Shown: one piece after another, positions 1,609 through 51,624 of the stretch
Layout of the letters: the number at the start of each line of letters is the position of its first letter
Numbering within the stretch: position 1 is the stretch's first letter
NCBI GenBank assembly: GCA_028716065.1
Contig: JAQUQN010000001.1
Span: 13,266 to 77,265, forward strand
DNA length: 64,000 nt
Origin: Candidatus Omnitrophota bacterium
GTDB taxonomy: Bacteria; Omnitrophota; Gorgyraeia; 2-01-FULL-45-10
Direction: 5' to 3'
Notes under the pieces: generated by a model
What the model was told of the DNA's origin: nothing
Database searches by the model: none
Seen by the model: the letters and a program-made list of their open reading frames with translations, nothing else
Made by a program: the position numbers and the translations under genes

Positions 1609-3366
1609 ATGACCGAGTTGAACCAGCTCCTATTAACGGTGCAGAAACCGGCCAGATATATCGGAGGTGAATGGAACGCGGTCCGGAAGGAATGGAACGC
1701 CGGTACCGTAAAGGTCCTGCTCGCCTTCCCGGATGTATATGAAGTGGGCATGAGCTATCTGGGGCAGAAGATACTCTACGGCATATTGAATGAAAGAGAA
1801 GACTGCCTGTGCGAACGCGTCTTTTCGCCATGGCCGGATTTTGAAGATGTTTTAAGGAAGAATGATATTTCCCTCTTCAGCCTCGAATCACGTAAACCGA
1901 TAAAAGAATTCGACATCATCGGTTTCAGCCTCGCCTACGAACTTAACTACACAAATGCCCTGAATATATTAGACCTCGGCGGCATTCCGAAAAAGTCTTC
2001 CGAAAGGACCAATGGCGACCCGCTTATCATCGCAGGAGGGCCTTCCTGTTACAATCCTGAACCCATGGCCGAATTCATCGACGCATTCGTAATAGGCGAC
2101 GGGGAAGAAGCGATCGGAGATGTCATTGATACGTATAAGAGAACGCAGTACGCTGTACGCAGTACGCGGTACGAGCTACTAAAAGAACTGGCGAAGATAG
2201 AAGGGGTATATGTGCCGTCGTTATACGAAGTCAATTATAATGATGATGGTACAATAAAAAAATTTTCTCCTTTGTCGGGCCAGGCCCCCGAGAGAATCAA
2301 GAAAAGAATACTTAAAGATATAGAGAACTCTTACTATCCCACCAAGCAACTTGTACCTTATATACAGATCGTCCACGACAGGATAGCTCTGGAGATAATG
2401 CGTGGATGCGTTCACAACTGCAGGTTCTGCCAGGCGGGAACTACTTACAGGCCATGCCGGCAAAGGTCTGAGGAGAGAGTGATGAGACTTGCCGAGGAGT
2501 CTTATGGCACGACCGGTTATGAAGAGCTATCGCTATTATCTTTATCGAGCGGTGACCATCCGAAGATAAAGGAGATAATAAAAGGGCTCAACCGAATATT
2601 CGAAGGCAAGGCCGTTTCTATCTCCGTGCCTTCCTTGAGGATAGAGGATATCCTGGGAGATCTCCCGGAACTTATATCCCGGGTGAAGAAGACGGGCCTG
2701 ACATTCGCTCCCGAGGCGGGAAGCGAATGCCTGAGAAAGAGGGTGAATAAGAACATCGACATAGAGAAGCTTTATGAGGCCGTTTTGAAATCTTTCCATT
2801 CCGGATGGCGCAGGATAAAATTATATTTCATGATAGGGTTACCCGCGGAGAATGATGAGGACCTTACAGCTATCGGGGAGCTCGTAAAAAAGATTTCTGA
2901 CCTGAAGAAAAATATAGACGGACGGCCCGGCCACGTCACGGCCAGCATAAACGCTTTCGTTCCCAAGCCACATACCTCTTTTCAGTGGGAGGCCATGGCG
3001 AGCATGGAAGAACTCGGCCGTAAAAAAGGGATTTTGCTGGGCAGTGTGAGATCCCGGAACATAGAACTTGATTTTCACCCGTTTGAGAGAGGGTTTGTAG
3101 AGGCAATATTTTCACGCGGCGACAGAAGGTTATCGGAAGCGATCTATAACGCCTGGCGTTCCGGATGCCGTTTTGACGGATGGAGGGATTTTTTTAATTT
3201 CGGGGCCTGGATGAATTCTTTTAAGAATAGCGGAATAGACCCCTTTTTCTATGCATATCGCAAAAGGTCCGGAGACGAGATACTCCCCTGGGATTTTGTC
3301 GATATAGGTATAGGGAAGGACTATTTTCTGAAGGAGGCGAAGACCGCCGGAAATACGGCAGTTTGA
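1609..3366 (+). CDS. B12-binding-domain radical SAM protein (TIGR03960-like)
   Basis: CxxxCxxC motif (RGCVHNCRFCQAG) and an N-terminal B12-binding-like region. This family normally sits next to DUF2344 and rng. Confidence 0.75.
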   Translation: MTELNQLLLTVQKPARYIGGEWNAVRKEWNAGTVKVLLAFPDVYEVGMSYLGQKILYGILNEREDCLCERVFSPWPDFEDVLRKNDISLFSLESRKPIKEFDIIGFSLAYELNYTNALNILDLGGIPKKSSERTNGDPLIIAGGPSCYNPEPMAEFIDAFVIGDGEEAIGDVIDTYKRTQYAVRSTRYELLKELAKIEGVYVPSLYEVNYNDDGTIKKFSPLSGQAPERIKKRILKDIENSYYPTKQLVPYIQIVHDRIALEIMRGCVHNCRFCQAGTTYRPCRQRSEERVMRLAEESYGTTGYEELSLLSLSSGDHPKIKEIIKGLNRIFEGKAVSISVPSLRIEDILGDLPELISRVKKTGLTFAPEAGSECLRKRVNKNIDIEKLYEAVLKSFHSGWRRIKLYFMIGLPAENDEDLTAIGELVKKISDLKKNIDGRPGHVTASINAFVPKPHTSFQWEAMASMEELGRKKGILLGSVRSRNIELDFHPFERGFVEAIFSRGDRRLSEAIYNAWRSGCRFDGWRDFFNFGAWMNSFKNSGIDPFFYAYRKRSGDEILPWDFVDIGIGKDYFLKEAKTAGNTAV

Positions 3367-3391
3367 CAACTCGTATTTTATAGAGTATACT
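3363..3391 (+). promoter_or_regulatory. Sigma70-type promoter TTGACA-N17-TATACT for the GGDEF-pilT operon; overlaps the stop of the upstream gene
   Basis: TTGACA at 3363-3368, a 17-nt spacer, TATACT at 3386-3391. A GGGAGG RBS and ATG 3427 follow. Confidence 0.45.
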
Positions 3392-3426
3392 TATCCTAAT
3401 ATTACATTATAATGGGAGGTAATCAT

Positions 3427-4842
3427 ATGAGAGGCATCTTCAAGAGCTTGGCCCTTATCCCCAAGGGATTGAGGTATAAATTGATGCTCGCCTTCAGCCT
3501 CATGTCCATCATACCGCTTCTTGTCTCCGTCTATCTTATCAATTTGTATATTTTTCCGCGATTGGATAATTTTGCCGACGTCAGTTTGGCAGTTCTATTT
3601 TCAGTATTGATAGCCTTGCTGGGCCTGATCCTGGCCAAGAAGCTCATCGACCCGATCATAGAGATAGCCATCGAAGCGAAGGTGATAGCAGGCGGCGGAT
3701 ATGATAAAAAGATCGCGGTTTCGAGCGATGACGAGATAGGTGTTCTGGGGGAATCGATAAATATCATGACGCAGAAGATAAAATCGAATCTTGACGAGCT
3801 CAAGAACTATGGCCAGAAGACAAGGGAGATAAATCTGGAGATACACAAAAAGGTCCTGGCGCTCACCAATCTTCTGCAGGTAGGAGACATGATATCGGCC
3901 GGTTCCATAGAGATAGACCGTGTTCTCGAATTGGCCGTTCAGAAGGCATCCGCCACCTTCGATAACGGTTACGGAATAATATACATGCCCAGGGATGGGG
4001 AAGGTGATTTTTATGTAAAGGCGTCCAGCAATATCGAGCAGGAGGCGTTGGCGGACCTCGTGATCAAAAAGAGAGGGCATAATCTTCTGGAAAAGGCGTT
4101 ATTCAACCGTTCCATGCTTATCATCGACAGCGGAGTGAAAGAATCGAAAGAGGTAGAGCATTTCAGATCTGCCTACAATGTGAAGAACATGGTAGCCTTA
4201 CCGTTATATTCCTCGAACACGGATCTGGCGGTATTGGTAATCGGAAACAGAGAGGACGATTTTAAATTCAGAAATGAAGATCTGGACCTGATCAAGGTCT
4301 TTGCCAAGCAGATCTCCATCGCCATAGAAAATGAGGTACTCTTCAGAAAGAACAAGGAACTCGTCATCAAGGACGAGTTGACGGGGCTTTATAATAAAAA
4401 CTATATTCTGCCCAGGATGGAGGATGAGATCAGGCGCGCGGTATTCTGTCAGAGGCCGTGTTCTTTTATGATCTTCAACATCGATGATTTCAAGAAGATG
4501 ATGGAACAGGGCGGAGAGCTTGAGGCCGAAGAGATAATAAAGAAGGTGGCCAAACTCATAAAGGACAATACCTCGCCGATAGGCAAGATAGCGAGGATAG
4601 GCGGAGACGAGTTCGCGGTCCTCCTGCCCGAAAAGAATAAAAAAGAGGCCATGGAGGCGGCGGAGGGTATAAGAATAGCCGTGGAGAAGACCTTTTCAAA
4701 AGACGGCAAGCCTTATCTTACGGTAAGCGCCGGAGTGAGCGAGAACCCCATAGACGGTGCCACGCAAGATGAGATACTGAAAAAGGCCCTTGAGGCTCTG
4801 CGTCAGGCAAAAAGTTCCGGAAAAAATAGAGTCTCGGCTTGA
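3427..4842 (+). CDS. Membrane-anchored HAMP-GAF-GGDEF diguanylate cyclase
   Basis: Two N-terminal TM helices, a HAMP-like segment, a GAF domain and an intact GGDEF motif (RIGGDEFAVLL). The GGGAGG RBS lies 6 nt upstream of ATG 3427. The ORF track's 3412 start would include the RBS. Confidence 0.8.
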   Translation: MRGIFKSLALIPKGLRYKLMLAFSLMSIIPLLVSVYLINLYIFPRLDNFADVSLAVLFSVLIALLGLILAKKLIDPIIEIAIEAKVIAGGGYDKKIAVSSDDEIGVLGESINIMTQKIKSNLDELKNYGQKTREINLEIHKKVLALTNLLQVGDMISAGSIEIDRVLELAVQKASATFDNGYGIIYMPRDGEGDFYVKASSNIEQEALADLVIKKRGHNLLEKALFNRSMLIIDSGVKESKEVEHFRSAYNVKNMVALPLYSSNTDLAVLVIGNREDDFKFRNEDLDLIKVFAKQISIAIENEVLFRKNKELVIKDELTGLYNKNYILPRMEDEIRRAVFCQRPCSFMIFNIDDFKKMMEQGGELEAEEIIKKVAKLIKDNTSPIGKIARIGGDEFAVLLPEKNKKEAMEAAEGIRIAVEKTFSKDGKPYLTVSAGVSENPIDGATQDEILKKALEALRQAKSSGKNRVSA

Positions 4843-4859
4843 AAAAAAAGGAGAGTAAA

Positions 4860-5924
4860 ATGGCTCATGACCTGAAAAAACTTTTAAAGGAGATGGTTGA
4901 AAAAAACGCCTCGGACGTTCACATAACGGTCCATTCTCCTATAAGGATGAGGATAGATGAAAAACTCATCTCCATAGATAATCATGACCTAACACCCGAA
5001 GAGACGAAGGAGATATCTTACAGCATCCTGAATAAACAGCAGATAGAGAGGTTTGAGAATGAGCTTGAACTTGACATGTCCTTCGGCCTTGAGGGCGTGA
5101 GCCGTTTCAGGGTCAACATATTCAAACAGAGAGGCTGTATAGGATGTTCCATAAGATTGATCCCCTATGAGATATGGACCTTCGACCAGTGCGGACTACC
5201 CGTCGATGTGGTGACCAATCTTTGCAATAAACCGAAGGGGCTGGTCCTCATAACCGGCGAGACGGGAAGCGGAAAATCCACGAGCCTGGCCTCGATGATA
5301 GACTGGATAAACAAACACAAGGCATGCCACATAATAACCGTGGAAGACCCCATAGAGTTTGTCCATAATAATAAGCAGTCGATCGTCGATCAACGCGAGG
5401 TGTACAGCGATACCTATTCGTTTTCGGCGGCCCTGAAACATGTGTTGAGACAGGATCCCGATGTCATACTGATAGGCGAGATGAGGGACCTGGAGACGAT
5501 AGAGTCCGCTTTGATAATCGCCGAAACGGGACACCTGGTATTGGCGACGCTGCATACTTCCGACTGCGTCCAGACAATAAACAGGATCATAGATGTCTTC
5601 CCGTCGCATCAGCAGCAGCAGATAAGGACCCAGCTCTCATTCGTTCTAATAGGGGTTTTGTCGCAGCAATTGATACCCAAGATAAAAGGCCCCGGCCGCA
5701 TCCTCGCGACGGAAGTATTGATAGTAAACCCGGCCGTCAGAAGCCTGATAAGAGAGACGAAGATACATCAGCTCTATTCCGTGATACAGACATCGCAGAG
5801 AGAGGGCATGAAGACGATGAATCAGGCTTTGTACGAACTCTATCAGAAAAAACTCATATCCTATGAAGAGGCCTTCGCGAGATCGACGGATCCGGATGAC
5901 CTCTCGAGGATCTTTAAAAGGTAA
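4860..5924 (+). CDS. pilT: Type IV pilus retraction ATPase PilT
   Basis: Walker A GETGSGKST, the PilT-specific AVRSLIRE motif, and a length of about 354 aa. The AAGGAG RBS lies 6 nt upstream of ATG 4860. The gene is tightly packed after the GGDEF gene. Confidence 0.85.
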   Translation: MAHDLKKLLKEMVEKNASDVHITVHSPIRMRIDEKLISIDNHDLTPEETKEISYSILNKQQIERFENELELDMSFGLEGVSRFRVNIFKQRGCIGCSIRLIPYEIWTFDQCGLPVDVVTNLCNKPKGLVLITGETGSGKSTSLASMIDWINKHKACHIITVEDPIEFVHNNKQSIVDQREVYSDTYSFSAALKHVLRQDPDVILIGEMRDLETIESALIIAETGHLVLATLHTSDCVQTINRIIDVFPSHQQQQIRTQLSFVLIGVLSQQLIPKIKGPGRILATEVLIVNPAVRSLIRETKIHQLYSVIQTSQREGMKTMNQALYELYQKKLISYEEAFARSTDPDDLSRIFKR

Positions 5925-5933
5925 GATATAGAT

Positions 5934-6383
5934 ATGATTCCCATAAGGCGAATAGTCTCCAAACAACTGGGTGAGCTTCTTCTTGAAAGGAATATAATAA
6001 ATAAGGCCCAGCTCGAGAAGGCCCTTCAGATACAGAAGGAAAAAGGCGGGCTGATAGGGCAGGTGCTTGTCATGCTGGGTTACGCCACCGAAGAACAGAT
6101 AGCCCAGGCCCTTACCGTACAGTATGGGTTTCCGTACCTGCCGCTCGATAACTATGAGATAAATACCGAAACCATCAAGATAATCTCGGAAAATGTCGCA
6201 AAACAATATAATCTGATAGCGATAGACAAGATAGGCGAACTCATGACCATCGCGATGTCGAACCCGTTGAATTATCAGGCCATCGAAGATATAGAGATGA
6301 TCACCAAGTGCAAGGTCCAGGTATTTGTGAGCACGATGACAGATATCAATAACGCGATAAAAAAATATTATACCAAGAGATAG
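5934..6383 (+). CDS. Stand-alone GspE/MshE N-terminal (T2SSE_N/MshEN-like) domain protein; putative c-di-GMP receptor
   Basis: 149 aa matching the N-terminal domains of the two downstream PilB proteins. Contains the MshEN-type motif QLGELLLERNIINKAQLEKALQIQ (RLGxxLxxxGxIxxxxLxxxLxxQ pattern). Confidence 0.65.
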   Translation: MIPIRRIVSKQLGELLLERNIINKAQLEKALQIQKEKGGLIGQVLVMLGYATEEQIAQALTVQYGFPYLPLDNYEINTETIKIISENVAKQYNLIAIDKIGELMTIAMSNPLNYQAIEDIEMITKCKVQVFVSTMTDINNAIKKYYTKR

Positions 6384-8123
6384 ATGATAGCTACATTAAG
6401 AGAACGCCTGACGAAGATACTTATCGAGAAGAAACTCGTAAAAGAGAAAGACCTCTCGAACGCCCTTGCCGCCCAGAAGGAAAGAGGGGGGTCCTTAAGC
6501 GACATACTCGTCGGCATGGGCCTTGTCTCCAAGGGCGACCTCATGATAACCCTGAGCCAGGAACTCGGTATCCCTCCGATAAATCTTTCCAGATGCAAGG
6601 TAGACCCGCAGGTGATCAAATTGATACCGAAGAAGACAGCCAAGCATTATAATATCCTGCCCATATCCAAGATGGGAGGGACCCTTACCGTTGCCGTGTC
6701 CGATCCGCTGAATATACTGGCGATCGACGATATAAAGACGCTTACCGGATTTAAGATAAATCTTGCGATAACCACCGACAAGGATATCAGGGACGCCATC
6801 GGGCAATATTATGAAGAGACGGCGTATATCGCAATCGAAAAGATCGTAGAGGGCATGCAGGAGGAATCGGATATAAAGATGATCGAAGCGCACGAAGGCG
6901 AGTCATCGGTTGCTTCATCGGAATTGTTGAAACTGACCCAGGAAGCGCCTGTCGTGAAGATCACCAATCTCATCCTTTCCGAAGCCGTCAGCCTGAGGGC
7001 AAGCGATATACTCATCGAACCCACCGATAACGCGCTTCGTATAAGATACAGGGTCGACGGTATCCTGCAGGAGGCCGAGAAACATCCGCCCAAAGTGCTG
7101 CATGGCGCTATAATCTCCCGCCTGAAAGTAATGTCCACTCTGGATATCGCCGAGCGCCGCCTGCCGCAGGACGGAAGGTTCAAGATAAAATTACACGGCC
7201 GCATCGTGGACTTCAGGGTATCGGTCCTGCCTTCAAGCAAGGGCGAAAAGGTCGCGTTGAGGATCCTGGACAAGTCACAGGCCATGCTCAACATAGATTC
7301 ACTCGGGTTCGATAAAAGGTCAGTGGACGAGATAAAACGATGCACGACAAGGCCGCATGGCATGATATTGATATGCGGGCCTACCGGCTGCGGAAAGACG
7401 ACGACCCTATATTCTATTCTCAATCACATAAATTCTCCCGAAGACAATGTCGTTACAGTAGAAGATCCGGTGGAATATCTCATAGAAGGCGTGAACCAGG
7501 TCACATCCAGGCCGGATATAGGGCTGACATTTGCCGGGGCATTAAGGTCGATCCTGAGACAGGATCCCGATATCATCATGATCGGCGAGATAAGGGATCT
7601 CGAGACGGTCGACATTGCCATAAAGGCCGCTTTGACGGGGCATCTCGTCCTGAGCACTCTTCACACCACGACTGCTCCCGGTTCGATAATAAGACTGGTT
7701 AACATGGGAGTGGAACCTTTTCTCATGACATCATCCCTTATCATGGTAGGCGCGCAGAGGCTCGTGAGAAAGATATGCCCGAATTGCAAGGAGCCGCATG
7801 AGTTGAGTGACGAGGTTCTGAAAAAACTTAAAATAAAACAGTCCGGTAAAAAAGCTGTATTCTATAGAGGCAAGGGATGCAATGCGTGTTTAAATACCGG
7901 TTATAAAGGGCGTGTCGGGCTCATAGAGGTGCTCGTCTTAAGCCCGTCTATCAGGGCTCTCATTCTGGAGGGTGCGCAGGAATACAGAATAATGGATCAG
8001 GCCAGGCGTGAAGGCATGATGAGCTTGAGAGAAAACGGTTTACAGGCCGCGCTGTACGGGATAACGACCCTGGACGAGGTTTTGCGCGTGACTGTAGGTG
8101 ACCAGGAGATAGAGGCGAAATAG
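6384..8123 (+). CDS. pilB: Type IV pilus assembly ATPase PilB/GspE, paralog 1
   Basis: N-terminal T2SSE_N domain, Walker A GPTGCGKTTT, Asp/His boxes, and a tetracysteine motif (CPNCKEP...CNAC). Confidence 0.85.
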   Translation: MIATLRERLTKILIEKKLVKEKDLSNALAAQKERGGSLSDILVGMGLVSKGDLMITLSQELGIPPINLSRCKVDPQVIKLIPKKTAKHYNILPISKMGGTLTVAVSDPLNILAIDDIKTLTGFKINLAITTDKDIRDAIGQYYEETAYIAIEKIVEGMQEESDIKMIEAHEGESSVASSELLKLTQEAPVVKITNLILSEAVSLRASDILIEPTDNALRIRYRVDGILQEAEKHPPKVLHGAIISRLKVMSTLDIAERRLPQDGRFKIKLHGRIVDFRVSVLPSSKGEKVALRILDKSQAMLNIDSLGFDKRSVDEIKRCTTRPHGMILICGPTGCGKTTTLYSILNHINSPEDNVVTVEDPVEYLIEGVNQVTSRPDIGLTFAGALRSILRQDPDIIMIGEIRDLETVDIAIKAALTGHLVLSTLHTTTAPGSIIRLVNMGVEPFLMTSSLIMVGAQRLVRKICPNCKEPHELSDEVLKKLKIKQSGKKAVFYRGKGCNACLNTGYKGRVGLIEVLVLSPSIRALILEGAQEYRIMDQARREGMMSLRENGLQAALYGITTLDEVLRVTVGDQEIEAK

Positions 8124-8126
8124 AAT

Positions 8127-9842
8127 ATGGCCGAATCTTTTAAAAATAAACTCATAGAAATTCTTATCAAAAGCAAGGGCCTGAAGGAATCAGACCTCAA
8201 TAAGGCGCTCGAGACCCAGAAGAAGTCCGGCGGGAGCCTTAGCAAGATAATGGTAGACAACGGGTTCATCACGCAGAAGTCATTGATGCTCGTCTTGAGC
8301 CAGCAGCTGAGCATTCCTCCCATCAACCTATCCAAATTCAAGATCAACAAGGAAGTCCTCGGCCTAATACCTGAGAAAATGGCAAGGCAGTATTCGCTCA
8401 TACCCATATCAAAGATCGGGAACGTCCTTACGGTAGCGATGGCGGATCCGCTGAATATCTTCGCCCTGGATGACCTGAAGATGATAACGAAATTCAGGAT
8501 AGATCCGGCAATATCCACCGAGAATGATATAAGGGAAGCCATAGATAATTATTACGGGCTCCATGCCCAGGACATATCGAAGGTATTTGAAGAGGCGCCC
8601 ACCGCGGATGTTGAGCTGGTGGAAGAAGAGCGTGTGGACGTGAGCGAGGCCACGGAAGAGAGCCAGAAGGCCCCGATAGTCAAGGTGGTAAATCTGATAC
8701 TGGACGAGGCCCTCAAGAAACGGGCGAGCGATATTCATATCGAACCTTGCGAGAATTTTTTGAAAGTGAGATACAGGATAGACGGCAGCCTTCATGATAT
8801 TCTCACGCTTCCCAAGAGCAATCAGAACGCCGTCCTGGCCAGGCTCAAGATAATGTCGAGGCTCGATATCACCGAGACGCGCCTTCCGCAGGATGGAAGG
8901 TTCATGATAAATTTCGAAGGCAAGCCGATAGATTTCAGGGTATCCGTCCTGCCGGTAGTTTTCGGAGGAAAGGTCGTGTTGAGGGTCCTGGATAAATCCA
9001 GCCTGAGCATCGGGCTGGAAAAGTTAGGATTTTTACCGGGGCCGCTGGCCACGTTCAAGACCGCGCTTGAAAGGCCTTATGGGATGATACTCGTTACGGG
9101 TCCTACGGGAAGCGGAAAGTCGACCACATTATATTCCATCATCAACCAGCTTAACAAACCCCAGCGCAACATAATCACCCTGGAAGATCCGGTCGAATAT
9201 GAACTGGACGGTATCACGCAGATACCGGCACGGCCGGAGATAGGCTTGACTTTCGCCAACGGCCTGCGTTCGGTGCTCAGGCAAAGTCCCGATATCGTGA
9301 TGGTGGGCGAGATCAGGGATTTTGAGACGGCAGATATAGCCATAAAGGCTTCTTTGACGGGACAGTTGATATTGAGTACGCTCCATACAAATGATTCTGC
9401 CGGAGCGATCACCAGGCTCATCGACATGGGTGTGGAGCCGTTCCTGGCCGCTTCCAGCCTCGTGTTGCTGACCGCTCAAAGGCTGATGAGAAAGATATGC
9501 CCGAGCTGTAAGACCGAAGAAGGTGTCCCGGCAAATGTCCTAGAACGCATAGGGTTGAAACATCAGGAATTGATAAAAAAAGGGACCAGGAAGTTCTATA
9601 AAGGAGCGGGTTGCGCAAGATGCAACAAGACCGGATATTATGGAAGGATCGGCATACTGGAGGCCTTCCTTGTCGATGACCACGTAAGGGACATGATAAT
9701 GAAAAAGGTTTCGAGCGACGACATAAAGGATTACGCCGTCAAAGAACTGGGCATGAAGACATTGAGAGACAACGCGGTGGAAAATTTCATGAATGGTCTC
9801 ACGACGCTCGAAGAAGTTTTCAGGGTTACCTCGGAGGATTAG
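8127..9842 (+). CDS. Type IV pilus assembly ATPase PilB/GspE, paralog 2
   Basis: Same architecture as paralog 1, with Walker A GPTGSGKSTT and CPSCK...CARC. Confidence 0.85.
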   Translation: MAESFKNKLIEILIKSKGLKESDLNKALETQKKSGGSLSKIMVDNGFITQKSLMLVLSQQLSIPPINLSKFKINKEVLGLIPEKMARQYSLIPISKIGNVLTVAMADPLNIFALDDLKMITKFRIDPAISTENDIREAIDNYYGLHAQDISKVFEEAPTADVELVEEERVDVSEATEESQKAPIVKVVNLILDEALKKRASDIHIEPCENFLKVRYRIDGSLHDILTLPKSNQNAVLARLKIMSRLDITETRLPQDGRFMINFEGKPIDFRVSVLPVVFGGKVVLRVLDKSSLSIGLEKLGFLPGPLATFKTALERPYGMILVTGPTGSGKSTTLYSIINQLNKPQRNIITLEDPVEYELDGITQIPARPEIGLTFANGLRSVLRQSPDIVMVGEIRDFETADIAIKASLTGQLILSTLHTNDSAGAITRLIDMGVEPFLAASSLVLLTAQRLMRKICPSCKTEEGVPANVLERIGLKHQELIKKGTRKFYKGAGCARCNKTGYYGRIGILEAFLVDDHVRDMIMKKVSSDDIKDYAVKELGMKTLRDNAVENFMNGLTTLEEVFRVTSED

Positions 9843-9843
9843 G

Positions 9844-11058
9844 GTGGCAAATTTTAAATATGCTGCGAAGGATAGTTCAGGCAAGACGATCACTGGTATG
9901 CTGGAAGCCAAGGACCGCGCAGGAGCCATGGAAATTTTACGGAGCAAGGAATTTATCATCGTTTCGCTGAATGAGACTTCCGGCGCATCCAAGGGTTCTT
10001 TTAGTTTCTTCAGTAAGTCCAAGGTCAAGCTGGACGACCTTGTCATTTTTGCCAGGCAGCTGGCGACGATGGTAGACGCCGGTATACCCCTGGTAAGCGC
10101 GCTCGATATATTGAGCGAACAGATAGAGAACAAGACTTTCGGCGACGTTATCATCAACGTGAGACAGGATGTGGAAACAGGATCGAGCCTTTCGGAGGCG
10201 ATGAATAAGCATAAAAAAGTTTTTTCAGCCCTATTTGTAAACATGGTAAAGGCCGGTGAGTCGAGCGGCATGCTCGACGAGATACTCGACCGTCTGGCGG
10301 CTTACCTGGAGAAGACGAGCGCGCTTCAGAAGAAGATCAAGTCTGCCCTCATGTATCCGGCCGTAGTTACCAGCATGGCCATAGGCATAACGCTGCTTTT
10401 ATTGTTAAAGGTCATACCGATATTCAAGGAGATATTTTCTGGTTTCGGGGCGGACCTGCCCGTGCCAACACTCATACTGATCACCATCAGCGATTCTTTG
10501 CGCAAGTATTTTGTTATTGTGGTGATCCTCCTCGCCGGGGCGGGATATCTCTTTTCGAGATATCTCAAAACGGACAAGGGCCGGTATCAGTTTGACGGTT
10601 TTTTGCTCAACATGCCGGTTTTCGGGATATTATTCAAGAAAGTGGCCATCAGTAAATTTACCAGGACATTATCGACTTTGATCAAGAGCGGCGTACCGAT
10701 CCTCGGAGCGCTGGAGATAGTCAGTAAGACCGCGGGTAATAAAGTTGTCGAGGCCGCGGTGGATAAGGTGCGCATGAACGTCAGGGAAGGCGAAAATGTA
10801 GCGGAACCTCTGGCCAAATCGAAGATATTTCCCCCCATGGTCGTGAGGATGGTGTCCGTGGGCGAGCAGGCGGGGGAACTGGAGAAGATGCTTTCAAAGA
10901 TAGCCGATTTTTATGATGAACAGGTCGATACGGCGGTCAGCGGATTGACCAGTATGATAGAACCTCTCATAATAGCCTTTCTGGGGGTGGTTATCGGTTC
11001 CATAGTCATATGCATGTTCCTGCCGATATTCAAGATCACTTCCATAGTAAGCGGATAA
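9844..11058 (+). CDS. pilC: Type IV pilus platform protein PilC (GspF family)
   Basis: Two GspF repeats on a polytopic membrane protein. GTG 9844 lies directly after the pilB2 stop. The ORF-track start at 9793 overlaps pilB2. Confidence 0.85.
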   Translation: MANFKYAAKDSSGKTITGMLEAKDRAGAMEILRSKEFIIVSLNETSGASKGSFSFFSKSKVKLDDLVIFARQLATMVDAGIPLVSALDILSEQIENKTFGDVIINVRQDVETGSSLSEAMNKHKKVFSALFVNMVKAGESSGMLDEILDRLAAYLEKTSALQKKIKSALMYPAVVTSMAIGITLLLLLKVIPIFKEIFSGFGADLPVPTLILITISDSLRKYFVIVVILLAGAGYLFSRYLKTDKGRYQFDGFLLNMPVFGILFKKVAISKFTRTLSTLIKSGVPILGALEIVSKTAGNKVVEAAVDKVRMNVREGENVAEPLAKSKIFPPMVVRMVSVGEQAGELEKMLSKIADFYDEQVDTAVSGLTSMIEPLIIAFLGVVIGSIVICMFLPIFKITSIVSG

Positions 11059-11087: not shown

Positions 11088-11116
11088 TTGACAATACGCG
11101 ATTTACCAGGTATACT
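11088..11116 (+). promoter_or_regulatory. Sigma70-type promoter TTGACA-N17-TATACT upstream of the major pilin
   Basis: TTGACA 11088-11093, a 17-nt spacer, TATACT 11111-11116. The AGGAGG RBS at about 11208 precedes ATG 11226. Confidence 0.5.
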
Positions 11117-11225
11117 TTAACACAAAAGGTCTACGCTGAAGTATAAATATATATATATTATCCGCTTCAGAGTAGGCCTTACAAGTCAATACCCAATTCT
11201 GGGAAGAAAGGAGGGGAAAAGTAAA

Positions 11226-11555
11226 ATGTTAAGAAGAAAGGGCTTTACGCTCGTTGAAATTATGATAGTAGTCGCAATTATCGGTTTATTAGCGGCGATA
11301 GCCATTCCTAACTTCATCAAGGCGAGAGAGACGGCCGAGAAGAACGCTTGTATCGCGAACCTGAAACAGATCCAGGGAGCGGTCCAGGTATGGGCGATAG
11401 ATAACGGCAAGACCAGTAGCGATACGCCCACGACCGGCGACCTCGTTCCGAATTACATTAAGGCATGGCCTAAATGTAAAGGGACGGCTTATGCCGTACC
11501 TGCTGTTAGCGCGGATCCGGCTTGTCCAGGTACTATATCCGGACACACGTTATAA
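11226..11555 (+). CDS. pilA: Type IVa pilin (prepilin, class III signal)
   Basis: MLRRKG|FTLVEIMIVVAIIGLLAAIAIP N-terminal methylation motif. C-terminal Cys pair. 109 aa. Confidence 0.85.
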   Translation: MLRRKGFTLVEIMIVVAIIGLLAAIAIPNFIKARETAEKNACIANLKQIQGAVQVWAIDNGKTSSDTPTTGDLVPNYIKAWPKCKGTAYAVPAVSADPACPGTISGHTL

Positions 11556-11596
11556 GATAGGAAGGTTACTGACGTTTATATTTAGTTAACGAGCGG

Positions 11597-11631
11597 CCCC
11601 ACACTCAGCTTGCTGGGTGTGGGGTTTTTTT
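11597..11631 (+). terminator. Rho-independent terminator after pilA
   Basis: 13-bp GC-rich stem (ccccacactcagc / gctgggtgtgggg), a 3-nt loop, then TTTTTTT. Confidence 0.7.
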
Positions 11632-11706
11632 GCGCATTTTGAGCTAAGTATTTTCATTCCTAACCTTGACAAAGTCCTCTTTATATGATAAATTCTTTTT
11701 AATAAG

Positions 11707-12180
11707 ATGAAAATTTGTTTTAAATATTATCGTAATGCATTTACCCCGTTAGAGAAAACCACCGATTTTAATCAGTGGTTATATCCGGATAAAGCTAACC
11801 CCGTTAGAAAAGATTTTTCTAAGGCGGTAAAAGAACCGCTAAATTCTCTAACGGGGTTTACGTTAGTTGAAATAATGATCGTTGTTGCCATAATAGCGAT
11901 CATAATAGCGATAGCCCTTCCGAATTATCTCAAAACGAGCACAGTTTCCAAAAAGACCATCTGCATAAATAATCTGAAACAGATAGACGCTGCCATAGAC
12001 CAGTGGGCCATGGAGAACGATATTCCCAAGGGCGCTCAGGCAACGGAAGAAGTCTATGATTATGTAAACGGCTCCAGGATAACTTGTCCGTCAGGAGGTG
12101 TATATACGTTACATTCGGTGGGAAGCAAGCCGCAGGTCACATGCAGTTTGGAAAATGAGGGGCATAAACTTCCGGAATGA
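11707..12180 (+). CDS. Second pilin-like protein with an unusually long 52-aa leader
   Basis: The mature part, G|FTLVEIMIVVAIIAIIIAIALPNY..., is homologous to pilA. ATG 11707 is the only in-frame start before it. Palindromic-element half-sites are embedded in the leader-coding DNA. Confidence 0.65.
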   Translation: MKICFKYYRNAFTPLEKTTDFNQWLYPDKANPVRKDFSKAVKEPLNSLTGFTLVEIMIVVAIIAIIIAIALPNYLKTSTVSKKTICINNLKQIDAAIDQWAMENDIPKGAQATEEVYDYVNGSRITCPSGGVYTLHSVGSKPQVTCSLENEGHKLPE

Positions 12181-15162: not shown

Positions 15163-16173
15163 ATGATATCGAAGCCGCAACTTAAATTAATAAATCGTGT
15201 AGGCCTAGACATAGGAAGTTCGTCTATCAAGTTGATGGAGGTTTCAGGCGCCTCCGGCGCGCAAAAGATAACGGCGCTGGGAACGAAAAAAATAAGGGAT
15301 CTTTCCAGACAATCGCTTACAAATTCTATTAAGAGTTTAACGCAGGAAATAAAAGTGAATTCAAGCGAGGCGGTTCTGTCCGTCTCCGGCGCATCGGTAA
15401 TAGTAAGGTTCATCTCGATGCCCAGAATGAGCGAAAAGGAACTTAAGGGCGCCGTCAGGTTCGAAGCTGAGAAATTCATCCCTTTCGATATAAAAGACTG
15501 CATGATCGATTTTCATATTTTAAGCCGGAACGAACGCGAAAATAAGACAGATGTTGTCCTGGCGCTGGCCAAGAAAGATCTTGTTGAGCAAAGGGTCAAG
15601 GCCGTGGAAGACGCGGGTTTCAGCGTAGGCGTGATGGATGTAGATTCGTTCGCCGTGACAAACGCGTTTTTGAAGAATTTTCCTTCTTTAGAGAGCGACA
15701 ATACGTGCGCCATTATCAATGTCGGAGCCAGTTATACTAACTTAAGTCTTGTAAAAGGGGGTCTACTCTGTTTCGTAAGGGATATAGCCATAGGCGGCAA
15801 CGAGTTTAACGCAGCCATGGCCAGGGAACTAGGGATGGATGAGTCAGGCTGTGAAGCTTTAAAGATCAGCCCCGGCCAGAAGGCTAAAGGCGTGAAGGAT
15901 TCCTTAAAAAATATACTCGGTAACCTGATAGACGAGATCAGGTTATCGTTCAGTTATTATGAAAACCAGTTCGGCAGGAACGTCGGATCGATCTATCTGT
16001 CCGGAGGAAGTTCGCGGCTTGTCGGTTTAGGCGATGCATTCGAAGATGCTTTCGGGCTTAAACCGGAGATCTGGGATCCGCTTAAGTTTTTAGATGTTTC
16101 TTCGATGGATGTAAAAAAACTGGAAGAATTGAGAAGTTCCATGGCCGTGGCGGCCGGTTTGATGCTGAGGTAA
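15163..16173 (+). CDS. pilM: Type IV pilus assembly protein PilM (actin-like ATPase)
   Basis: N-terminus IGLDIGSSSIKLMEV and an FtsA/actin fold signature. pilN follows. Confidence 0.85.
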   Translation: MISKPQLKLINRVGLDIGSSSIKLMEVSGASGAQKITALGTKKIRDLSRQSLTNSIKSLTQEIKVNSSEAVLSVSGASVIVRFISMPRMSEKELKGAVRFEAEKFIPFDIKDCMIDFHILSRNERENKTDVVLALAKKDLVEQRVKAVEDAGFSVGVMDVDSFAVTNAFLKNFPSLESDNTCAIINVGASYTNLSLVKGGLLCFVRDIAIGGNEFNAAMARELGMDESGCEALKISPGQKAKGVKDSLKNILGNLIDEIRLSFSYYENQFGRNVGSIYLSGGSSRLVGLGDAFEDAFGLKPEIWDPLKFLDVSSMDVKKLEELRSSMAVAAGLMLR

Positions 16174-16183
16174 ATTTAAATAG

Positions 16184-16861
16184 ATGATAGAGATCAATCT
16201 GTTACCGGAACAACGCAAGAAGAAGACAAGACAGGCCCAGCTGCCCAAATTGGATTTAGGGCAAATACCTGTTCTGAAGATCATGGCGGGGTTTCTTGTA
16301 ATACTTTTAGTTTTACAGACAGCCTTATTTTTTATCGGTATTTATTGCAGGATCAACCTTACTTCGTTGAACGCCAAATACAAGAAGATCCTGCCTGAGA
16401 AGCAAGAAGCCGATAGATTGAAAGCCATGACCGATTCGATGAGCAAGAAGGTGAAGAGCATCGATGACCTCATGGAGAACCGTCTGGATTGGGCCAGGAA
16501 ATTAAGCGACCTGGATGATTGCCTGACGCCCGGGGTGTGGTTGAGCGCGCTTAGCTATGATGAAGAGGCCGTTGAAAGGCCCATTGCTTCCGGCAGTGTG
16601 GCGATTACCGGTAAGGCAAAGGAAGGTAAGATAAAGACCGAAAGCGCCGTTGTAAGGCGTCTATTATTGTCGGGGTACGCGCTGACCATGGGCGAGGAAG
16701 GTACATCATTAATAGGCAGGTTCATCAAAAGCCTCAAAGATAACAGCGATTTTTATTCAGATTTTGGTAAGATAGAACTCGGATCAATAAAGAGAGACAG
16801 GTTTGACAAACAGGAAGTCATGAATTTCAGGATATTGTGTTTCTTCAAGGAGAATAGATGA
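16184..16861 (+). CDS. pilN: PilN
   Basis: MIEINLLPEQRKKK N-terminus and a single TM helix, typical of PilN. Confidence 0.8.
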   Translation: MIEINLLPEQRKKKTRQAQLPKLDLGQIPVLKIMAGFLVILLVLQTALFFIGIYCRINLTSLNAKYKKILPEKQEADRLKAMTDSMSKKVKSIDDLMENRLDWARKLSDLDDCLTPGVWLSALSYDEEAVERPIASGSVAITGKAKEGKIKTESAVVRRLLLSGYALTMGEEGTSLIGRFIKSLKDNSDFYSDFGKIELGSIKRDRFDKQEVMNFRILCFFKENR

Positions 16862-17451
16862 TAGATATTCTTGAGAGGTTAAATAAGAACAAAAAACAGG
16901 CCATGATATTTTTCATCGCGGCCTTTGTCATAGTCGTCATACTGTATTTTTATATATTGCTCTTGCCGCAAATAATGGCCTTGACGGATATCCTGGGTCA
17001 GACGGGCAAGCGGGTTTTCGAGTTGAAAGAGGCCCAGGCTGCCGTATCCAATATAGATAATCTTAAAAAGGCCGTGAAGGTCTATAATGAAAAGATAGAT
17101 ATTTACGAGAAGAGGCTGCCCGCGGAAAATGAGATCCCGACTTTGCTTGAAAGCCTTTCGATCATGGCAAGGGATTCCAACGTGAAGATAATCGGCATAA
17201 CGCCCGTGACACTTTTCGGTGATCAGAAAAAGCCAAGGGGCCGGATATATCAGGAATTCCCGATCCAGGTAAGCGCCAAGGCGGGATATCATGAGCTGGG
17301 GTGTTTTTTAGGCCGGCTCGAAAATGCGGACCGTTTCATGAAGGTTATAGATATAAATATAAATGCCGACGCCGCTACGCCAAAAAAACATGATGTGGAG
17401 CTTGTAGTCGCTACGTATATATTACTTAAAGAGGCCGGTAAGACGAGATGA
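16858..17451 (+). CDS. pilO: PilO-like protein
   Basis: Position after pilN with a 4-nt overlap. One TM helix, a coiled coil, and an appropriate size. Confidence 0.6.
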   Translation: MIDILERLNKNKKQAMIFFIAAFVIVVILYFYILLLPQIMALTDILGQTGKRVFELKEAQAAVSNIDNLKKAVKVYNEKIDIYEKRLPAENEIPTLLESLSIMARDSNVKIIGITPVTLFGDQKKPRGRIYQEFPIQVSAKAGYHELGCFLGRLENADRFMKVIDININADAATPKKHDVELVVATYILLKEAGKTR

Positions 17452-17834
17452 GGACAAAATATATCTGTTTGATGATAAGCATTTTCACTTTTGTCAGCGT
17501 AAATATACATGCCGGTAAGGCGCCCTTCAAATATGAAGCAAGGGGAAGGCGCGATCCGTTCATTCCCTTGATAAGCACCGACCGGTCGTCGCAGATCTCG
17601 CTGAAAGACGTCGTTTCCGTGGATGAATTAAAACTGGAAGGCATAGCCACTACCGGGTCCGGAGGCAAGAGATTTGCCATCATGAACGGCGAGATGCTCA
17701 AGGAGAATGAAAAGATAGGCAATGTAAAAATCAAACAGATATCCAATGCAGAAGTTCTATTGACGATATCTGAAAAGGAATATATAATCAGTTTACCTAA
17801 AAAAGAGGAGGGTCTGAAGAGTGGGAAAGAATAA
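17448..17834 (+). CDS. pilP: PilP-like lipoprotein
   Basis: Signal peptide, an RRDPF motif (PilP hallmark), and position between pilO and pilQ. Confidence 0.6.
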   Translation: MRTKYICLMISIFTFVSVNIHAGKAPFKYEARGRRDPFIPLISTDRSSQISLKDVVSVDELKLEGIATTGSGGKRFAIMNGEMLKENEKIGNVKIKQISNAEVLLTISEKEYIISLPKKEEGLKSGKE

Positions 17835-19476
17835 ACTTATTAGTTTCGGTTTGTTGTCCGTGGCGCTTTTTGTTTTTACCTCCATGGTTACGTCTTCGGC
17901 AGATGAAGGTCCCGCAACGCCGATGGCGGAAGAGGCCGAAGGAGCGGTTACTGAGCCGGCGGCAGCCGTTGAAGGAGCAGGATCTCAGTCTCCTGCCTCG
18001 GACGCGGAAATCGCCTCCGAAACGAACGAACCGGAAGAGGTTTCCAAATTAGAGCCGGGTTATATCACGGTCAATTTCAAGGGAGCGGATATAAGGACAG
18101 TGCTCGCCTATATAGCCGAGGTCTCCGGGATAGATATAGTTCCGGCGCCTGACGTCAAGGGCGTCGTCGATCTGAAGCTTACAAACAAGCCCTGGAAGGT
18201 GGCCATGGACCTCATAGCCAAAAACTATGGCCTGGCATATGAAAAGGAGGGCGACATAATAAGGGTCGTGACGCTCGACAAGATAAAGCAGGAGGAGCTC
18301 ATTACCCAGGCCTTTACGCTGAACTACGGAAAGGCGAAGGATATAGTCTCTTCGATACAAAATATCGTCAGCGAGAGAGGCAAGGTGATGTATGATGACA
18401 GGACCAACATCCTGCTTGTCACCGATATTCCAACCAACTTATATAAGATAGGCGAGATCATTGGCAAACTTGATAAAAAGACCGATCAGGTCCTCATCGA
18501 GGCCAGGGTAATTGAGACAGTGCTGGGCGAAGATGAAAAACTCGGCATAGACTGGAATATCAAATTCACGGCTACCGGAGCGAAGCGGCCGACCACACTG
18601 CCGTTTGAAGCGTTCAAGACACCTTTCAATACTAAGTCAGGCGAAATGCAGGCGTATTTCCCGCAGGTCCAGGTAGCGGCTCCGACGAGCACGACCGAGA
18701 CCGTTGGAGGCGCCACAGTGTCGACCGAATCGGCGCTATTCCCTTCCTCGGCTACAGGTGTTTTCAGCTTTCCATATGCAGCGGCAAGCGATTTTTCATT
18801 CGGCACTTTGGATTTTTCACAATTTCAGGCCGTTTTGGAAATGATAAAATCAAGGTCTGACACTGATCTCGTTTCCAATCCGAGGATAGCGACCCTGAAT
18901 AATACCGAAGCCTTAATCAACGTGGGGCAGACGATAAACCTGCCGACGTATGAACGGAATTCCACGACCGGTAAGATGGAGATAACCGGGTATGACGCCA
19001 AGGACCTGGGCATAATACTCAAGGTTACCCCGCACATAAACGATTCCGGAGAGATAGTCGTGGATCTCTTCCCGGAAATAAGCGATCTCATAAGATATGA
19101 CACACTGGATGCGGCCTCCGGGATCGTAGCGCCCGTATTCTCCGCAAGGCAGGCAAAGACCCAGGTGATGATAAAGGACGGCGATACGATATTCATAGGC
19201 GGCCTCATAAAAGAGAACAATGTGAACACGAAAAAGAAGATGCCGTTCTTCGGGGATATCCTGGGAGATGTCCCTTACCTGGGGCTCTTATTTACAAAGA
19301 AAGAGATAACAAAACGGAAGACAGAACTGGTATTCTTCATAACCGTCAACCTCATGAAGACGGGGAAAGAGATCAAGACTTCCCCCAAGCCGGAAAAGTC
19401 GTATCAACCCACGTTCGTCGCTACGCAGGAACCGGATAAGACTCCGAAAAAGAGAATGAAGAAGATGATGTTCTGA
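17821..19476 (+). CDS. pilQ: Type IV pilus secretin PilQ
   Basis: Signal peptide, an acidic low-complexity linker, an N0/Secretin_N domain, and a C-terminal secretin domain (NPRIATLNNTEALINVGQ..., GGLIKEN..., PFFGDILGDVPYLGLLF). Confidence 0.85.
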   Translation: MGKNKLISFGLLSVALFVFTSMVTSSADEGPATPMAEEAEGAVTEPAAAVEGAGSQSPASDAEIASETNEPEEVSKLEPGYITVNFKGADIRTVLAYIAEVSGIDIVPAPDVKGVVDLKLTNKPWKVAMDLIAKNYGLAYEKEGDIIRVVTLDKIKQEELITQAFTLNYGKAKDIVSSIQNIVSERGKVMYDDRTNILLVTDIPTNLYKIGEIIGKLDKKTDQVLIEARVIETVLGEDEKLGIDWNIKFTATGAKRPTTLPFEAFKTPFNTKSGEMQAYFPQVQVAAPTSTTETVGGATVSTESALFPSSATGVFSFPYAAASDFSFGTLDFSQFQAVLEMIKSRSDTDLVSNPRIATLNNTEALINVGQTINLPTYERNSTTGKMEITGYDAKDLGIILKVTPHINDSGEIVVDLFPEISDLIRYDTLDAASGIVAPVFSARQAKTQVMIKDGDTIFIGGLIKENNVNTKKKMPFFGDILGDVPYLGLLFTKKEITKRKTELVFFITVNLMKTGKEIKTSPKPEKSYQPTFVATQEPDKTPKKRMKKMMF

Positions 19477-51354: not shown

Positions 51355-51369
51355 AAATAGGAGTTATAT

Positions 51370-51624
51370 ATGCCAGAGATTAATTCGCAGAATTTGGAAC
51401 AAGAATTAAGATCGCTCATAGCCAGTATTGTCGAGATAGATGAGAAGAAGATTACACCGGAAGCAAAGTTTATCGAAGACCTGGGAATGGATTCGATGAT
51501 GGCGCTTGAAATATTAGCATCGGTGGAGAAAAAATATAAGATAAGAATACCGGAAGAAAATTTAGCAAAAATGACAAATTTAAATAAAGTTGCTGACCTC
51601 GTGAAAGGATTTTTATCAAAATGA
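51370..51624 (+). CDS. acpP: Acyl carrier protein
   Basis: DLGMDSMMALE phosphopantetheine-attachment motif, 84 aa. Confidence 0.85.
   Translation: MPEINSQNLEQELRSLIASIVEIDEKKITPEAKFIEDLGMDSMMALEILASVEKKYKIRIPEENLAKMTNLNKVADLVKGFLSK

Follow-up and report, generated by a model that had tools for sequence, protein, structure and literature searches.

The DNA considered here (the window) is a stretch of 64,000 nt from a Candidatus Omnitrophota bacterium (GenBank assembly GCA_028716065.1, contig JAQUQN010000001.1, positions 13,266 to 77,265). Near its start, at 3363-11058, lies a motor block of six same-strand genes with very short junctions, in the order HAMP-GAF-GGDEF gene, pilT, MshEN-only gene, pilB1, pilB2, pilC. 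At issue is how cyclic di-GMP (c-di-GMP) may act on the pilus motor that these genes encode. An initial annotation, made from the sequence alone, read the block as local c-di-GMP synthesis feeding three candidate receptors, with two extension motors on a single platform. The features it listed all lie where it put them, or within a few bases; its functional reading fares less uniformly.

All features of the block lie on the + strand. A sigma-70-type promoter, TTGACA-N17-TATACT (3363..3391), stands in front of the first gene. It matches the consensus at 11 of 12 positions and is among three sites that share the top score in the first 20 kb of the window, and the TGA stop of the upstream radical-SAM gene (3364-3366) falls within its -35 hexamer. 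The pair TTGACA...TATAGTATACT or TATAAT is seen upstream of the orthologous gene in 9 of the 12 relatives checked (L002, L003, L006, L007, L008, L009, L017, L018 and L020), with a different spacer sequence. That the hexamers are kept while the spacer varies supports a real promoter, more than a chance match, in line with what had been proposed. The first gene encodes a membrane-anchored protein with Pfam HAMP, GAF and GGDEF domains (3427..4842; the open reading frame (ORF) runs from 3412, and the likely start is the ATG at 3427, behind GGGAGG). Its stop codon (4840-4842) lies 17 nt before the pilT ATG (4860), exactly as first described. PilT itself (4860..5924) is a retraction-type ATPase (TIGR01420, 485.6 bits; cut-off 319.1), in which Walker A (GETGSGKS), the His box (TGHLVLATLHT) and AVRSLIRE are present. 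After a gap of 9 nt comes the gene for a stand-alone MshEN protein of 149 aa (5934..6383), whose TAG stop is directly abutted by the ATG of pilB1 (6384..8123). Three nucleotides separate pilB1 from pilB2 (8127..9842). The block ends with the platform gene pilC (9844..11058; Pfam T2SSF twice, NCBIfam PilC models 435-440 bits). The pilC ORF spans 9793-11058, and the true start is probably the GTG at 9844, one base past the pilB2 stop and behind GGAGGA.

Whether this arrangement is conserved in relatives had been left as a check. Our scan, which used one genome per species, returned 22 Omnitrophota loci, and the order of the block, continued by a pilin gene, recurs in about 20 Omnitrophota species-level genomes. 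Gene-by-gene comparison widens the recurring order to PBP2, RodA, radical SAM, HAMP-GAF-GGDEF, PilT, MshEN-only, PilB1, PilB2, PilC and pilin. The core from the MshEN-only gene to pilC is present in all Omnitrophota loci of sufficient length, and junctions are either 0-9 nt or ATGA overlaps. The first two genes are less constant: the GGDEF gene is absent from three Omnitrophota loci, and pilT is absent from the block in one subclade (L011-L016), where the GGDEF gene abuts the MshEN-only gene. In close relatives, the 149-aa protein is the best conserved product of the block, at 76-80% identity, while the ATPases reach 69-75% and the GGDEF protein 54-60%.

A hypothetical protein from a Candidatus Omnitrophica metagenome-assembled genome has the same sequence as the 149-aa protein (100% identity), and more than 120 database clusters of about 149 aa match the latter at 76-85% identity, all from Omnitrophota where named. 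The ORF as a pseudogene fragment of a third PilB is ruled out by these same-length clusters. Read-through of the stop codon, joining the MshEN-only protein to PilB1, was also considered. The two genes are in frame in the window, but those of orthologues have ATGA overlaps or lie in other frames, so read-through is not conserved and the stop codon is real. Distant homologues (40-43% identity) occupy the same kind of module, which consists of TM-HAMP-GGDEF (TM, transmembrane), MshEN-only, single PilB and PilC genes in locus L062, and of receiver-domain, MshEN-only, PilB, PilB and PilC genes in locus L064. No description of the arrangement in Omnitrophota turned up in our literature searches. Every component comes from a known family; what is new is their combination, conserved phylum-wide: the sensor domain is detached, the in-cis sensor sites of both motors have decayed, the two motors co-evolve and carry complementary changes, and a pseudo-cyclase is encoded next to them.

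The stand-alone MshEN domain and its fused counterparts

To our knowledge, MshEN is one of two broadly distributed c-di-GMP receptor domains, and nearly all work on it concerns modules fused at the N-terminus of a larger protein. The 149-aa protein is a full MshEN domain with no other domain attached. Pfam PF05157 (MshEN), the profile check suggested by the initial annotation, spans residues 64-146, which is the C-subdomain only; this limit of the model, which the supplement of PMC5013675 also states, means that PF05157 does not test the ligand site. In its place, we used NF053729.1, an NCBIfam model of the 53-residue c-di-GMP motif, together with checks at the level of single residues. The protein scores 61.6 bits over 53/53 positions (cut-off 38) and both 24-residue motifs are present, which bears out, under a hidden Markov model (HMM), the earlier claim of a stand-alone MshEN domain with paired motifs.

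Motif I occupies residues 11-34 (QLGELLLERNIINKAQLEKALQIQ; 5964..6035, + strand) and motif II residues 40-63 (LIGQVLVMLGYATEEQIAQALTVQ; 6051..6122, + strand), the latter following a 5-residue spacer, KEKGG. Both fit (R/K/L)LGxxhhxxGhhxxxxLxxxLxxQ, except for two positions of motif I: position 1, which is Gln instead of Arg, Lys or Leu, and position 10, which is Asn, as it is in Geobacter PilB. Motif II has Leu at position 1, matching the high-affinity GSPII-B domain of PilF. The residues accepted at position 1 were widened to Arg, Lys or Leu by work on Thermus PilF, whose GSPII-B domain, with Lys and Leu at these positions, binds c-di-GMP with an affinity 83-fold above that of MshEN, showing that Arg is not required (PMC11731258). 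Residues equivalent to MshE G11, G40, Q32 and Q61 are all kept in the 149-aa protein. Across its orthologues, G13, G42, G49 and Q63 are invariant, Q34 is at least 90% conserved, and L12, L27, L31, L40, I56 and L60 are invariant or nearly so.

The predicted structure agrees with this assignment. An AlphaFold2 model of the protein (predicted local distance difference test score, 87) contains both subdomains, an N-terminal four-helix bundle and an alpha/beta C-subdomain, with helix 1 beginning at residue 12, without a long N-terminal extension. Its best Foldseek match is 5HTL, MshE with c-di-GMP (template-modelling score 0.79-0.84, root-mean-square deviation 2.2 Å), with the GSPII domains of PilF next, and a sequence search of the PDB matches full MshEN domains.

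The N-terminal regions of PilB1 and PilB2 had likewise been described as MshEN-like. This holds at the level of the domain, but not for the glycines of the c-di-GMP motif. PilB1 reads RLTKIL... in motif I and SLSDILV...E in motif II, and PilB2 reads KLIEIL... and SLSKIMV...Q, such that the position-3 Gly is replaced in both motifs of each protein (by Thr and Ser in PilB1; by Ile and Ser in PilB2). The motif I Gly is absent from the PilB orthologues save one PilB1. In MshE, G11L leaves no detectable binding, G40I binds 72-fold more weakly, and G11I, which abrogates binding, had the most severe complementation defect among the three mutants tested (PMC5013675); XpsE, which does not bind, carries G11V and G40L. 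Judged by these residues, the N-terminal MshEN domains of both window ATPases are degenerate at the c-di-GMP motif glycines.

For a scale on which to read the HMM scores, we calibrated NF053729.1 on PilF domains of known behaviour, using sequences from the alignments of the PDB search. The binders GSPII-B and GSPII-C score 61.0 and 59.2 bits, and the non-binder GSPII-A scores 52.4 bits. GSPII-A thus passes the 38-bit cut-off, so that the cut-off does not separate binders from non-binders, and passing an HMM for MshEN or its c-di-GMP motif does not tell one from the other. In this ranking the 149-aa protein (61.6 bits) stands with the binders, whereas the N-termini of PilB1 (46.1 bits) and PilB2 (43.4 bits) both fall below the proven non-binder. 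Of the three receptors first proposed, then, the small protein retains both motifs, while the two ATPases have lost the glycines and rank under GSPII-A. From its sequence, the 149-aa protein is likely the only credible c-di-GMP receptor of the block.

How might a free MshEN domain relate to the motor? A search of 1.8 billion representatives yields dozens of stand-alone MshEN proteins, of 145-190 aa, as well as larger architectures in which a domain of this type occurs. Among the latter is the natural fusion P0138 (765 aa), whose first domain shares 43% identity with the stand-alone protein but only 29-34% with the N-termini of the PilBs, and has motifs that start RTG and RLG; over the rest of its length, which contains a second, degenerate MshEN domain, P0138 shares 49% identity with full-length PilB1. 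This architecture, (MshEN)2-T2SSE, is listed for Clostridia in PMC5013675, where the table of architectures holds no stand-alone complete MshEN protein. Seen against this fusion, the Omnitrophota arrangement reads as a split two-MshEN PilB.

Two other ORFs with related domains were encountered. One, from Omnitrophota (L023, 1990-2892), is 300 aa long; its first 148 residues are 54% identical to the stand-alone protein, and Ser replaces the motif-II Gly. The other, from Verrucomicrobiae (L049, 9005-9982), is a 325-aa ORF directly upstream of a PilB gene, with a weak C-terminal MshEN-like match (19% identity), and may be a distant counterpart of the stand-alone MshEN gene.

Two PilB paralogs and a GGDEF-domain neighbour

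PilB1 (579 aa) and PilB2 (571 aa) are 50% identical and, as initially described, both are full-length ATPases of the PilB/GspE family with a CxxC...CxxC tetracysteine motif. Each keeps the Walker A Lys, the Asp-box Glu, the catalytic Glu, both Arg fingers and the second His-box His, the gamma-phosphate His; E357, E395, R271, R286 and H420 of Geobacter PilB were the reference positions, mapped via PMC5424180. TIGR02538 (PilB) gives 642.6 bits for PilB1 and 657.7 bits for PilB2, below its equivalog cut-off of 675.65, yet it is the best-scoring family for both. GspE models give 597 and 598 bits (cut-off 630), the TfpB model NF053534.1 gives 443.6 and 443.8 bits (cut-off 850), and for TIGR03819, which models the TadA family, the scores are 46.9 and 39.9 bits (cut-off 373). 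Among PDB entries, the best matches are Geobacter PilB (557-572 bits; 561 for PilB1) and Myxococcus PilB (531-547), with GspE at 386-408. We can thus discard three other identities. PilB2 is not GspE, given the higher score of the PilB model and a GspE score that does not reach the cut-off; nor is it TfpB, at about 443 bits against 850. TadA/CpaF-type ATPases, a grouping of PilB2 that the initial annotation had named beforehand as counting against itself, lie far off for both proteins (40-47 bits versus about 650 for PilB), which moreover have an MshEN domain and CxxC...CxxC. With PilC, PilM, PilO, a secretin and prepilins encoded in the same cluster, the sequence evidence places both ATPases in the type IVa PilB class.

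The Walker A motif of PilB1, GPTGCGKT, had been called atypical. It in fact fits the P-loop consensus GxxxxGK[ST], and its Cys is found in only 12 of the 18 PilB1 orthologues, so we set this residue aside as a candidate for functional importance. (PilB2 has GPTGSGKS.) More telling differences emerge when the two families are compared as wholes. A neighbour-joining tree of the locus-derived sequences plus 28 PilBs of other phyla contains a PilB1 clade with 100% bootstrap support and a PilB2 clade with 73%, and has Verrucomicrobiota PilBs as the nearest outgroup. The internal topologies of the two clades match. Separate clades with matching topologies indicate that the duplication predates the sampled Omnitrophota and that the genes have co-evolved.

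Furthermore, three substitutions have become fixed in each clade at sites where the other clade and the outgroup show little or no variation. In PilB1, His is replaced by Leu in SDIH(I)EP (17/18), Thr by Cys before Walker A (18/18), and Asp by Asn in RLxDMG (18/18). In PilB2, the Glu five residues before the R286-equivalent finger becomes Gly in 18 of 20 sequences (the remaining two have Asn or Ser); the Asp before Walker B becomes Ser or Thr in all 20 (DPD to SPD/TPD); and the first His-box His, equivalent to H413 of Geobacter PilB, becomes Gln or Glu, again in 20/20. The His box of the window copy reads TGQLILSTLHT. All 46 other sequences (18/18 PilB1 and 28/28 outgroup PilBs) have the H413-equivalent His. 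PilB2 keeps the equivalents of T411, H420, E357, E395, R271 and R286, and among these catalytic positions H413 is the only one altered. In the Geobacter protein, T411 lies sandwiched by H413 and H420 and, at the contact between subunits, touches the Walker A loop of the adjacent packing unit; the authors suggested that the His box mediates cooperativity between chains (PMC5424180). The PilB2 signature (TGE, SPD, GKS) is also present in the distant L064 pair. Such reciprocal loss of otherwise invariant residues points to long-standing sub-functionalisation of PilB1 and PilB2.

WOR-3 and Lacipirellulaceae genomes, too, contain two PilB genes in tandem or nearly so (L024, 9965-13443; L026, 366-3802; L040, 10010-15159). 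In these, both copies have a His box of the canonical TGH form, and a stand-alone MshEN gene is absent. An uncultured bacterium (L027, 9995-11545) encodes a 516-aa fusion of an N-terminal MshEN-like domain to an ATPase that is PilT-like, not PilB-like.

The two motors were said to share one platform, and the cluster indeed has one pilC and one PilM/O/Q set for both. This single alignment and secretin set (15163..19476, + strand) consists of PilM (15163-16173; Pfam PilM_2, 186 bits), a PilN-like protein assigned by position only (16184-16861), PilO (16858-17451; Pfam, 63.5 bits), a small protein (17448-17834) and the PilQ secretin (17821-19476; Pfam Secretin, Secretin_N and STN).

We turn now to the first gene of the block. 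Its product (471-476 aa) begins with two hydrophobic helices, followed by HAMP (69-119), GAF (162-301) and GGDEF (315-468) domains as delimited by Pfam. The GGDEF domain passes its domain models (PF00990, 110 bits; TIGR00254, 104.8 bits), and the window copy reads GGDEF. At the catalytic residues listed in PMC6629876 the picture is different. Ungapped alignment to PleD gives D327N (nt 4477), K332K, N335M, H340E, D344E, R366R, GGDEF, K442K and R446K. N335 is found in none of the 16 orthologues and D327 in one; the signature is SGKEF, SGNEF, GETEF, ADDEF, SDDEF, SDDDF or AGDEF in 11 of the 16; and six lack the catalytic acidic residue of the motif. The RxxD I-site, expected five residues upstream of the signature, was looked for and not found, with Ser/Gly at the R359/D362 equivalents and Arg in no orthologue, which speaks against a degenerate-GGDEF receptor of the I-site type (e.g., PelD, PopA). 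A drifting signature, a lost metal ligand (D327) and the loss of both guanine-binding residues (N335, D344) amount to a degenerate GGDEF domain, and given this pattern among the orthologues, the intact GGDEF of the window copy is misleading. Cyclase activity cannot be deduced from one genome in which the signature is intact. We conclude that the HAMP-GAF-GGDEF protein, as far as its residues tell, is not a credible cyclase and that its domain is probably non-catalytic. The claim of local c-di-GMP synthesis is therefore not supported.

Locus L062 suggests how this state may have arisen. There, a shorter TM-HAMP-GGDEF protein has DID..ND..GH, an RxxD I-site and GGDEF, and its gene overlaps the start of the MshEN-only gene. 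By analogy with DgcJ-NfrB of E. coli, this suggests that the ancestral state was canonical, a local cyclase-receptor pair, and that in the clade of the window the enzyme subsequently degenerated, although the protein itself was kept and now includes a GAF domain. As for turnover of the nucleotide, two GAF-HD-GYP proteins are encoded in the window, at 26764-27888 (Pfam HD_5, E = 7e-33; LLHDIGK...YHHVKYSGGGYP) and 57776-59173 (HD_5, E = 2e-41; LLHDIGK...YHQECFDGSGYP). Both are candidate c-di-GMP phosphodiesterases, and their presence means that the organism probably has cyclic-dinucleotide turnover. A link to c-di-GMP is still consistent with these genes and with the overlap of canonical GGDEF and MshEN genes in L062. 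No c-di-GMP riboswitch was matched by Rfam at gathering thresholds over the 64 kb, and at E values up to 1 over 3-13 kb Rfam returned only chance miRNA-like matches on the pilin hairpin described below.

Possible modes of motor control

Omnitrophota are uncultivated, and what we say about function is predicted from sequence. On balance, we lean towards a motor that is split: its MshEN sensor would act in trans, its two extension ATPases would be sub-functionalised and work on the same platform, and a pseudo-cyclase would serve as a regulator. The block would be the motor operon of a single type IVa pilus machine, in which one conserved promoter drives six tightly coupled genes. The 149-aa protein would be the machine's c-di-GMP receptor, acting in trans; it would dock on PilB1 in the manner of the first domain of fused (MshEN)2-PilB proteins and so gate pilus extension, with c-di-GMP supplied by cyclases encoded elsewhere. 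The TM-HAMP-GAF-GGDEF protein, a presumed descendant of a once-local cyclase, would most likely be kept as a GAF-regulated, membrane-anchored partner or scaffold. PilB1 and PilB2 would be old, co-evolving and reciprocally specialised motors that share one PilC and PilMNOQ platform, most likely as two specialised hexamers taking turns, like PilB and TfpB of Acinetobacter baylyi; a mixed hexamer seems less likely. Local synthesis feeding three receptors is thereby largely replaced by one likely trans-acting receptor, with, as the sequences have it, no local synthesis in the clade.

Parts of this scheme have precedents. In Vibrio cholerae MshE and Myxococcus xanthus PilB, as here, the MshEN fold and its 53-residue two-motif site serve a type IV pilus extension ATPase (PMC5013675, PMC11656802). 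Those proteins bind c-di-GMP in cis, whereas here the motif-competent MshEN domain is a separate 149-aa polypeptide and the MshEN domains of the ATPases themselves have lost key glycines. Also, both position-1 Arg residues of MshE are absent from the 149-aa protein, which has Gln and Leu instead. The closest structural parallel is Thermus thermophilus PilF, with its mixture of binding and non-binding GSPII domains. Like the (MshEN)2- and (MshEN)3-T2SSE proteins of Clostridia and Deinococcus-Thermus, PilF has several MshEN (GSPII) domains per motor, and its GSPII-B binds with Lys and Leu in place of Arg, as compared with Gln and Leu here (PMC11731258, PMC12002112). Unlike the case at hand, the domains of PilF are fused in one chain; in Omnitrophota a conserved stop codon sets the binding-type copy apart.

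For trans-acting control by c-di-GMP, the closest functional parallel would be the FimX-PilZ-PilB system of Xanthomonas and Pseudomonas, where the signal reaches PilB in trans via a small adaptor on a degenerate N-terminus (PMC8389850; PDB 7LKM). FimX, too, has a degenerate GGDEF domain (PDB 3HVA). In that system, however, the receptor is an EAL domain and the adaptor is PilZ, whereas here the candidate receptor is itself an MshEN domain, and the motor block contains no PilZ or EAL gene. Two extension ATPases for a single type IVa pilus system are known from A. baylyi, which has PilB and TfpB (PMC11656802). Neither window paralog is TfpB (443 bits vs 850), the window genes are adjacent, and the window pair differs in its reciprocal loss of invariant residues, including the H413 equivalent. 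Finally, in E. coli DgcJ-NfrB, a specific GGDEF protein directly contacts an MshEN effector (PMC8669469), which is reminiscent of the overlapping genes of L062; the GGDEF partner in the window clade, unlike DgcJ, has lost its catalytic residues, and the effector would control a pilus motor and not a glycosyltransferase.

Several observations weigh against the split-motor reading. Gln at position 1 of motif I falls outside the published extended consensus of Arg, Lys or Leu, and the 149-aa protein has Asn (N110) where MshE and PilF have a C-subdomain Asp in contact with guanine. Conservation of the motifs is not specific evidence for a ligand site in a protein that is highly conserved throughout. 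Nor is motif conservation sufficient for binding: a PilF GSPII-A mutant restored to the consensus still does not bind (PMC12002112). The motif II Gly is kept in most PilB2 orthologues, and PilB2 could contribute a half-site to c-di-GMP binding. Docking on PilB1 is inferred from one fusion homologue. The data do not distinguish two homohexamers from a mixed hexamer. Moreover, no canonical cyclase was found when the window and some 300 kb from related loci, a small sample, were searched.

Some of these points would be expected if the 149-aa protein were ligand-independent, an account that we consider possible but do not favour. It could bridge PilB to PilM or PilC as an additional domain of the N1 type, or limit extension as a decoy, by competing with the PilB N-termini for the site at which they dock. 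MshEN_C (N1) domains are protein-docking modules, as illustrated by the N1 domain of GspE, which binds GspL, and by the degenerate N-terminus of PilB, which binds PilZ (PDB 2BH1, 4PHT, 7LKM). Position-1 Arg is found in neither motif, Asn stands in for the C-subdomain Asp, conservation is uniformly high and not concentrated in the motif, the neighbouring GGDEF domain looks dead, and in L064 the upstream partner is a receiver domain, not a cyclase. Such a role leaves it hard to explain why all of the residues important in MshE and PilF (G11, G40, Q32, Q61 and the leucine triads) are kept, invariant or nearly so, when the same residues have drifted in the co-resident PilB domains. The HMM score equal to that of proven binders and the HD-GYP genes in the same window speak in the same direction.

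A rather unlikely variant pushes the idea of division of labour further. PilB1 and PilB2 might form an obligate mixed motor, made with non-equivalent ATP sites by their reciprocal residue losses, to which the MshEN protein would attach as a detachable sensor subunit and the pseudo-cyclase, which once fed it, as a tether to the membrane. If true, this would be the first case of a heteromeric motor in the PilB family, and likewise of an MshEN receptor that acts in trans.

It is slightly less probable still that the two ATPases serve different outputs (two pilins, or extension as opposed to DNA uptake or secretion like that of a type II secretion system), the small MshEN protein being incidental. 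Two pilin genes with separate promoters do follow the motor block, bacteria with several PilB homologues often run distinct machines (PMC11656802), and tandem PilBs are seen in WOR-3 and Planctomycetota as well. But the cluster has one PilC, one PilM and PilO and one secretin; pilB1 and pilB2 lie 3 nt apart and have co-evolved with the same topology; and both proteins score higher as PilB than as GspE, whose cut-off is not reached. L062, in addition, has an MshEN-only gene with a single PilB, which means that the small protein is independent of the PilB pair. Least credible of all is an active HAMP-GAF-GGDEF cyclase making local c-di-GMP for the 149-aa protein and both PilB N-termini: although the window copy reads GGDEF, passes Pfam and TIGR00254 and is co-transcribed with the motor genes, although all three N-terminal regions exceed the 38-bit cut-off, and although a distant relative has a canonical GGDEF gene at the same position, D327N removes a metal ligand, N335M and D344E remove guanine contacts, the signature drifts in orthologues (SGKEF, GETEF, ADDEF), and the PilB N-termini, without the motif-I Gly and in the window copies also without the motif-II Gly, rank below a proven non-binder.

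If the split-motor reading is true, a stand-alone MshEN protein found phylum-wide beside motors with decayed sensor sites would be an MshEN receptor working in trans, and would offer a small protein for probing the effect of c-di-GMP binding on a PilB motor. The complementary losses in PilB1 and PilB2 bear, in turn, on a question posed in review of why some bacteria have several extension ATPases per machine.

Pilins and neighbouring genes

Downstream of the single pilC, the two pilin genes that had been noted are present, both of prepilin type, at 11226-11555 and 11707-12180. The first belongs to a major-pilin unit (11088..11626, + strand) comprising a second TTGACA-N17-TATACT promoter (11088-11116, +), a 5′ untranslated region (UTR) with a hairpin, a 109-aa prepilin with the Pfam N_methyl motif (11226-11555, +), and a strong terminator (11595-11626, +). 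The 5′ UTR (11110-11230) folds as a long hairpin at about 11126-11180, with a minimum free energy of -31.9 kcal/mol (z = -4.15 vs shuffles); against Rfam this hairpin matches no family and gives chance miRNA-precursor matches only. In the second pilin-like gene (11707..12180, + strand), the N_methyl motif occupies residues 50-71. About 45-49 residues of the ORF precede the prepilin motif, and orthologues align from residue 46-50 on. The true start is probably some 40-45 codons into the ORF, which would leave a 5′ UTR of about 130 nt after a promoter-like site at 11666-11694. More proteins with the N-methyl motif follow. Within this minor-pilin region lies a 450-aa ORF (13243-14595) with an N-terminal hydrophobic segment and no Pfam match; L064 and L065 have a DUF4900 protein at a comparable position.

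The 16-kb pilus cluster is flanked by the radical-SAM gene (1609-3366; Radical_SAM_N2 and Radical_SAM) and by a DUF2344 gene (19500-19808), after which comes RNase E/G (19810-21330). PBP2 and RodA are encoded upstream of the cluster, and in L062 the genes MreB-MreC-MreD-PBP2-RodA directly precede the GGDEF-MshEN-PilB genes. Taken together, the two loci indicate that pilus motor genes are embedded in a cell-shape locus across the lineage. Elsewhere in the window, a segment at about 50000-56000 has a GC content of 0.33-0.39, as against about 0.50 in the remainder, and may have been horizontally acquired; it encodes two beta-ketoacyl synthases, an amine oxidase-like flavoprotein and the start of a seven-transmembrane (7TM)-GAF histidine kinase.

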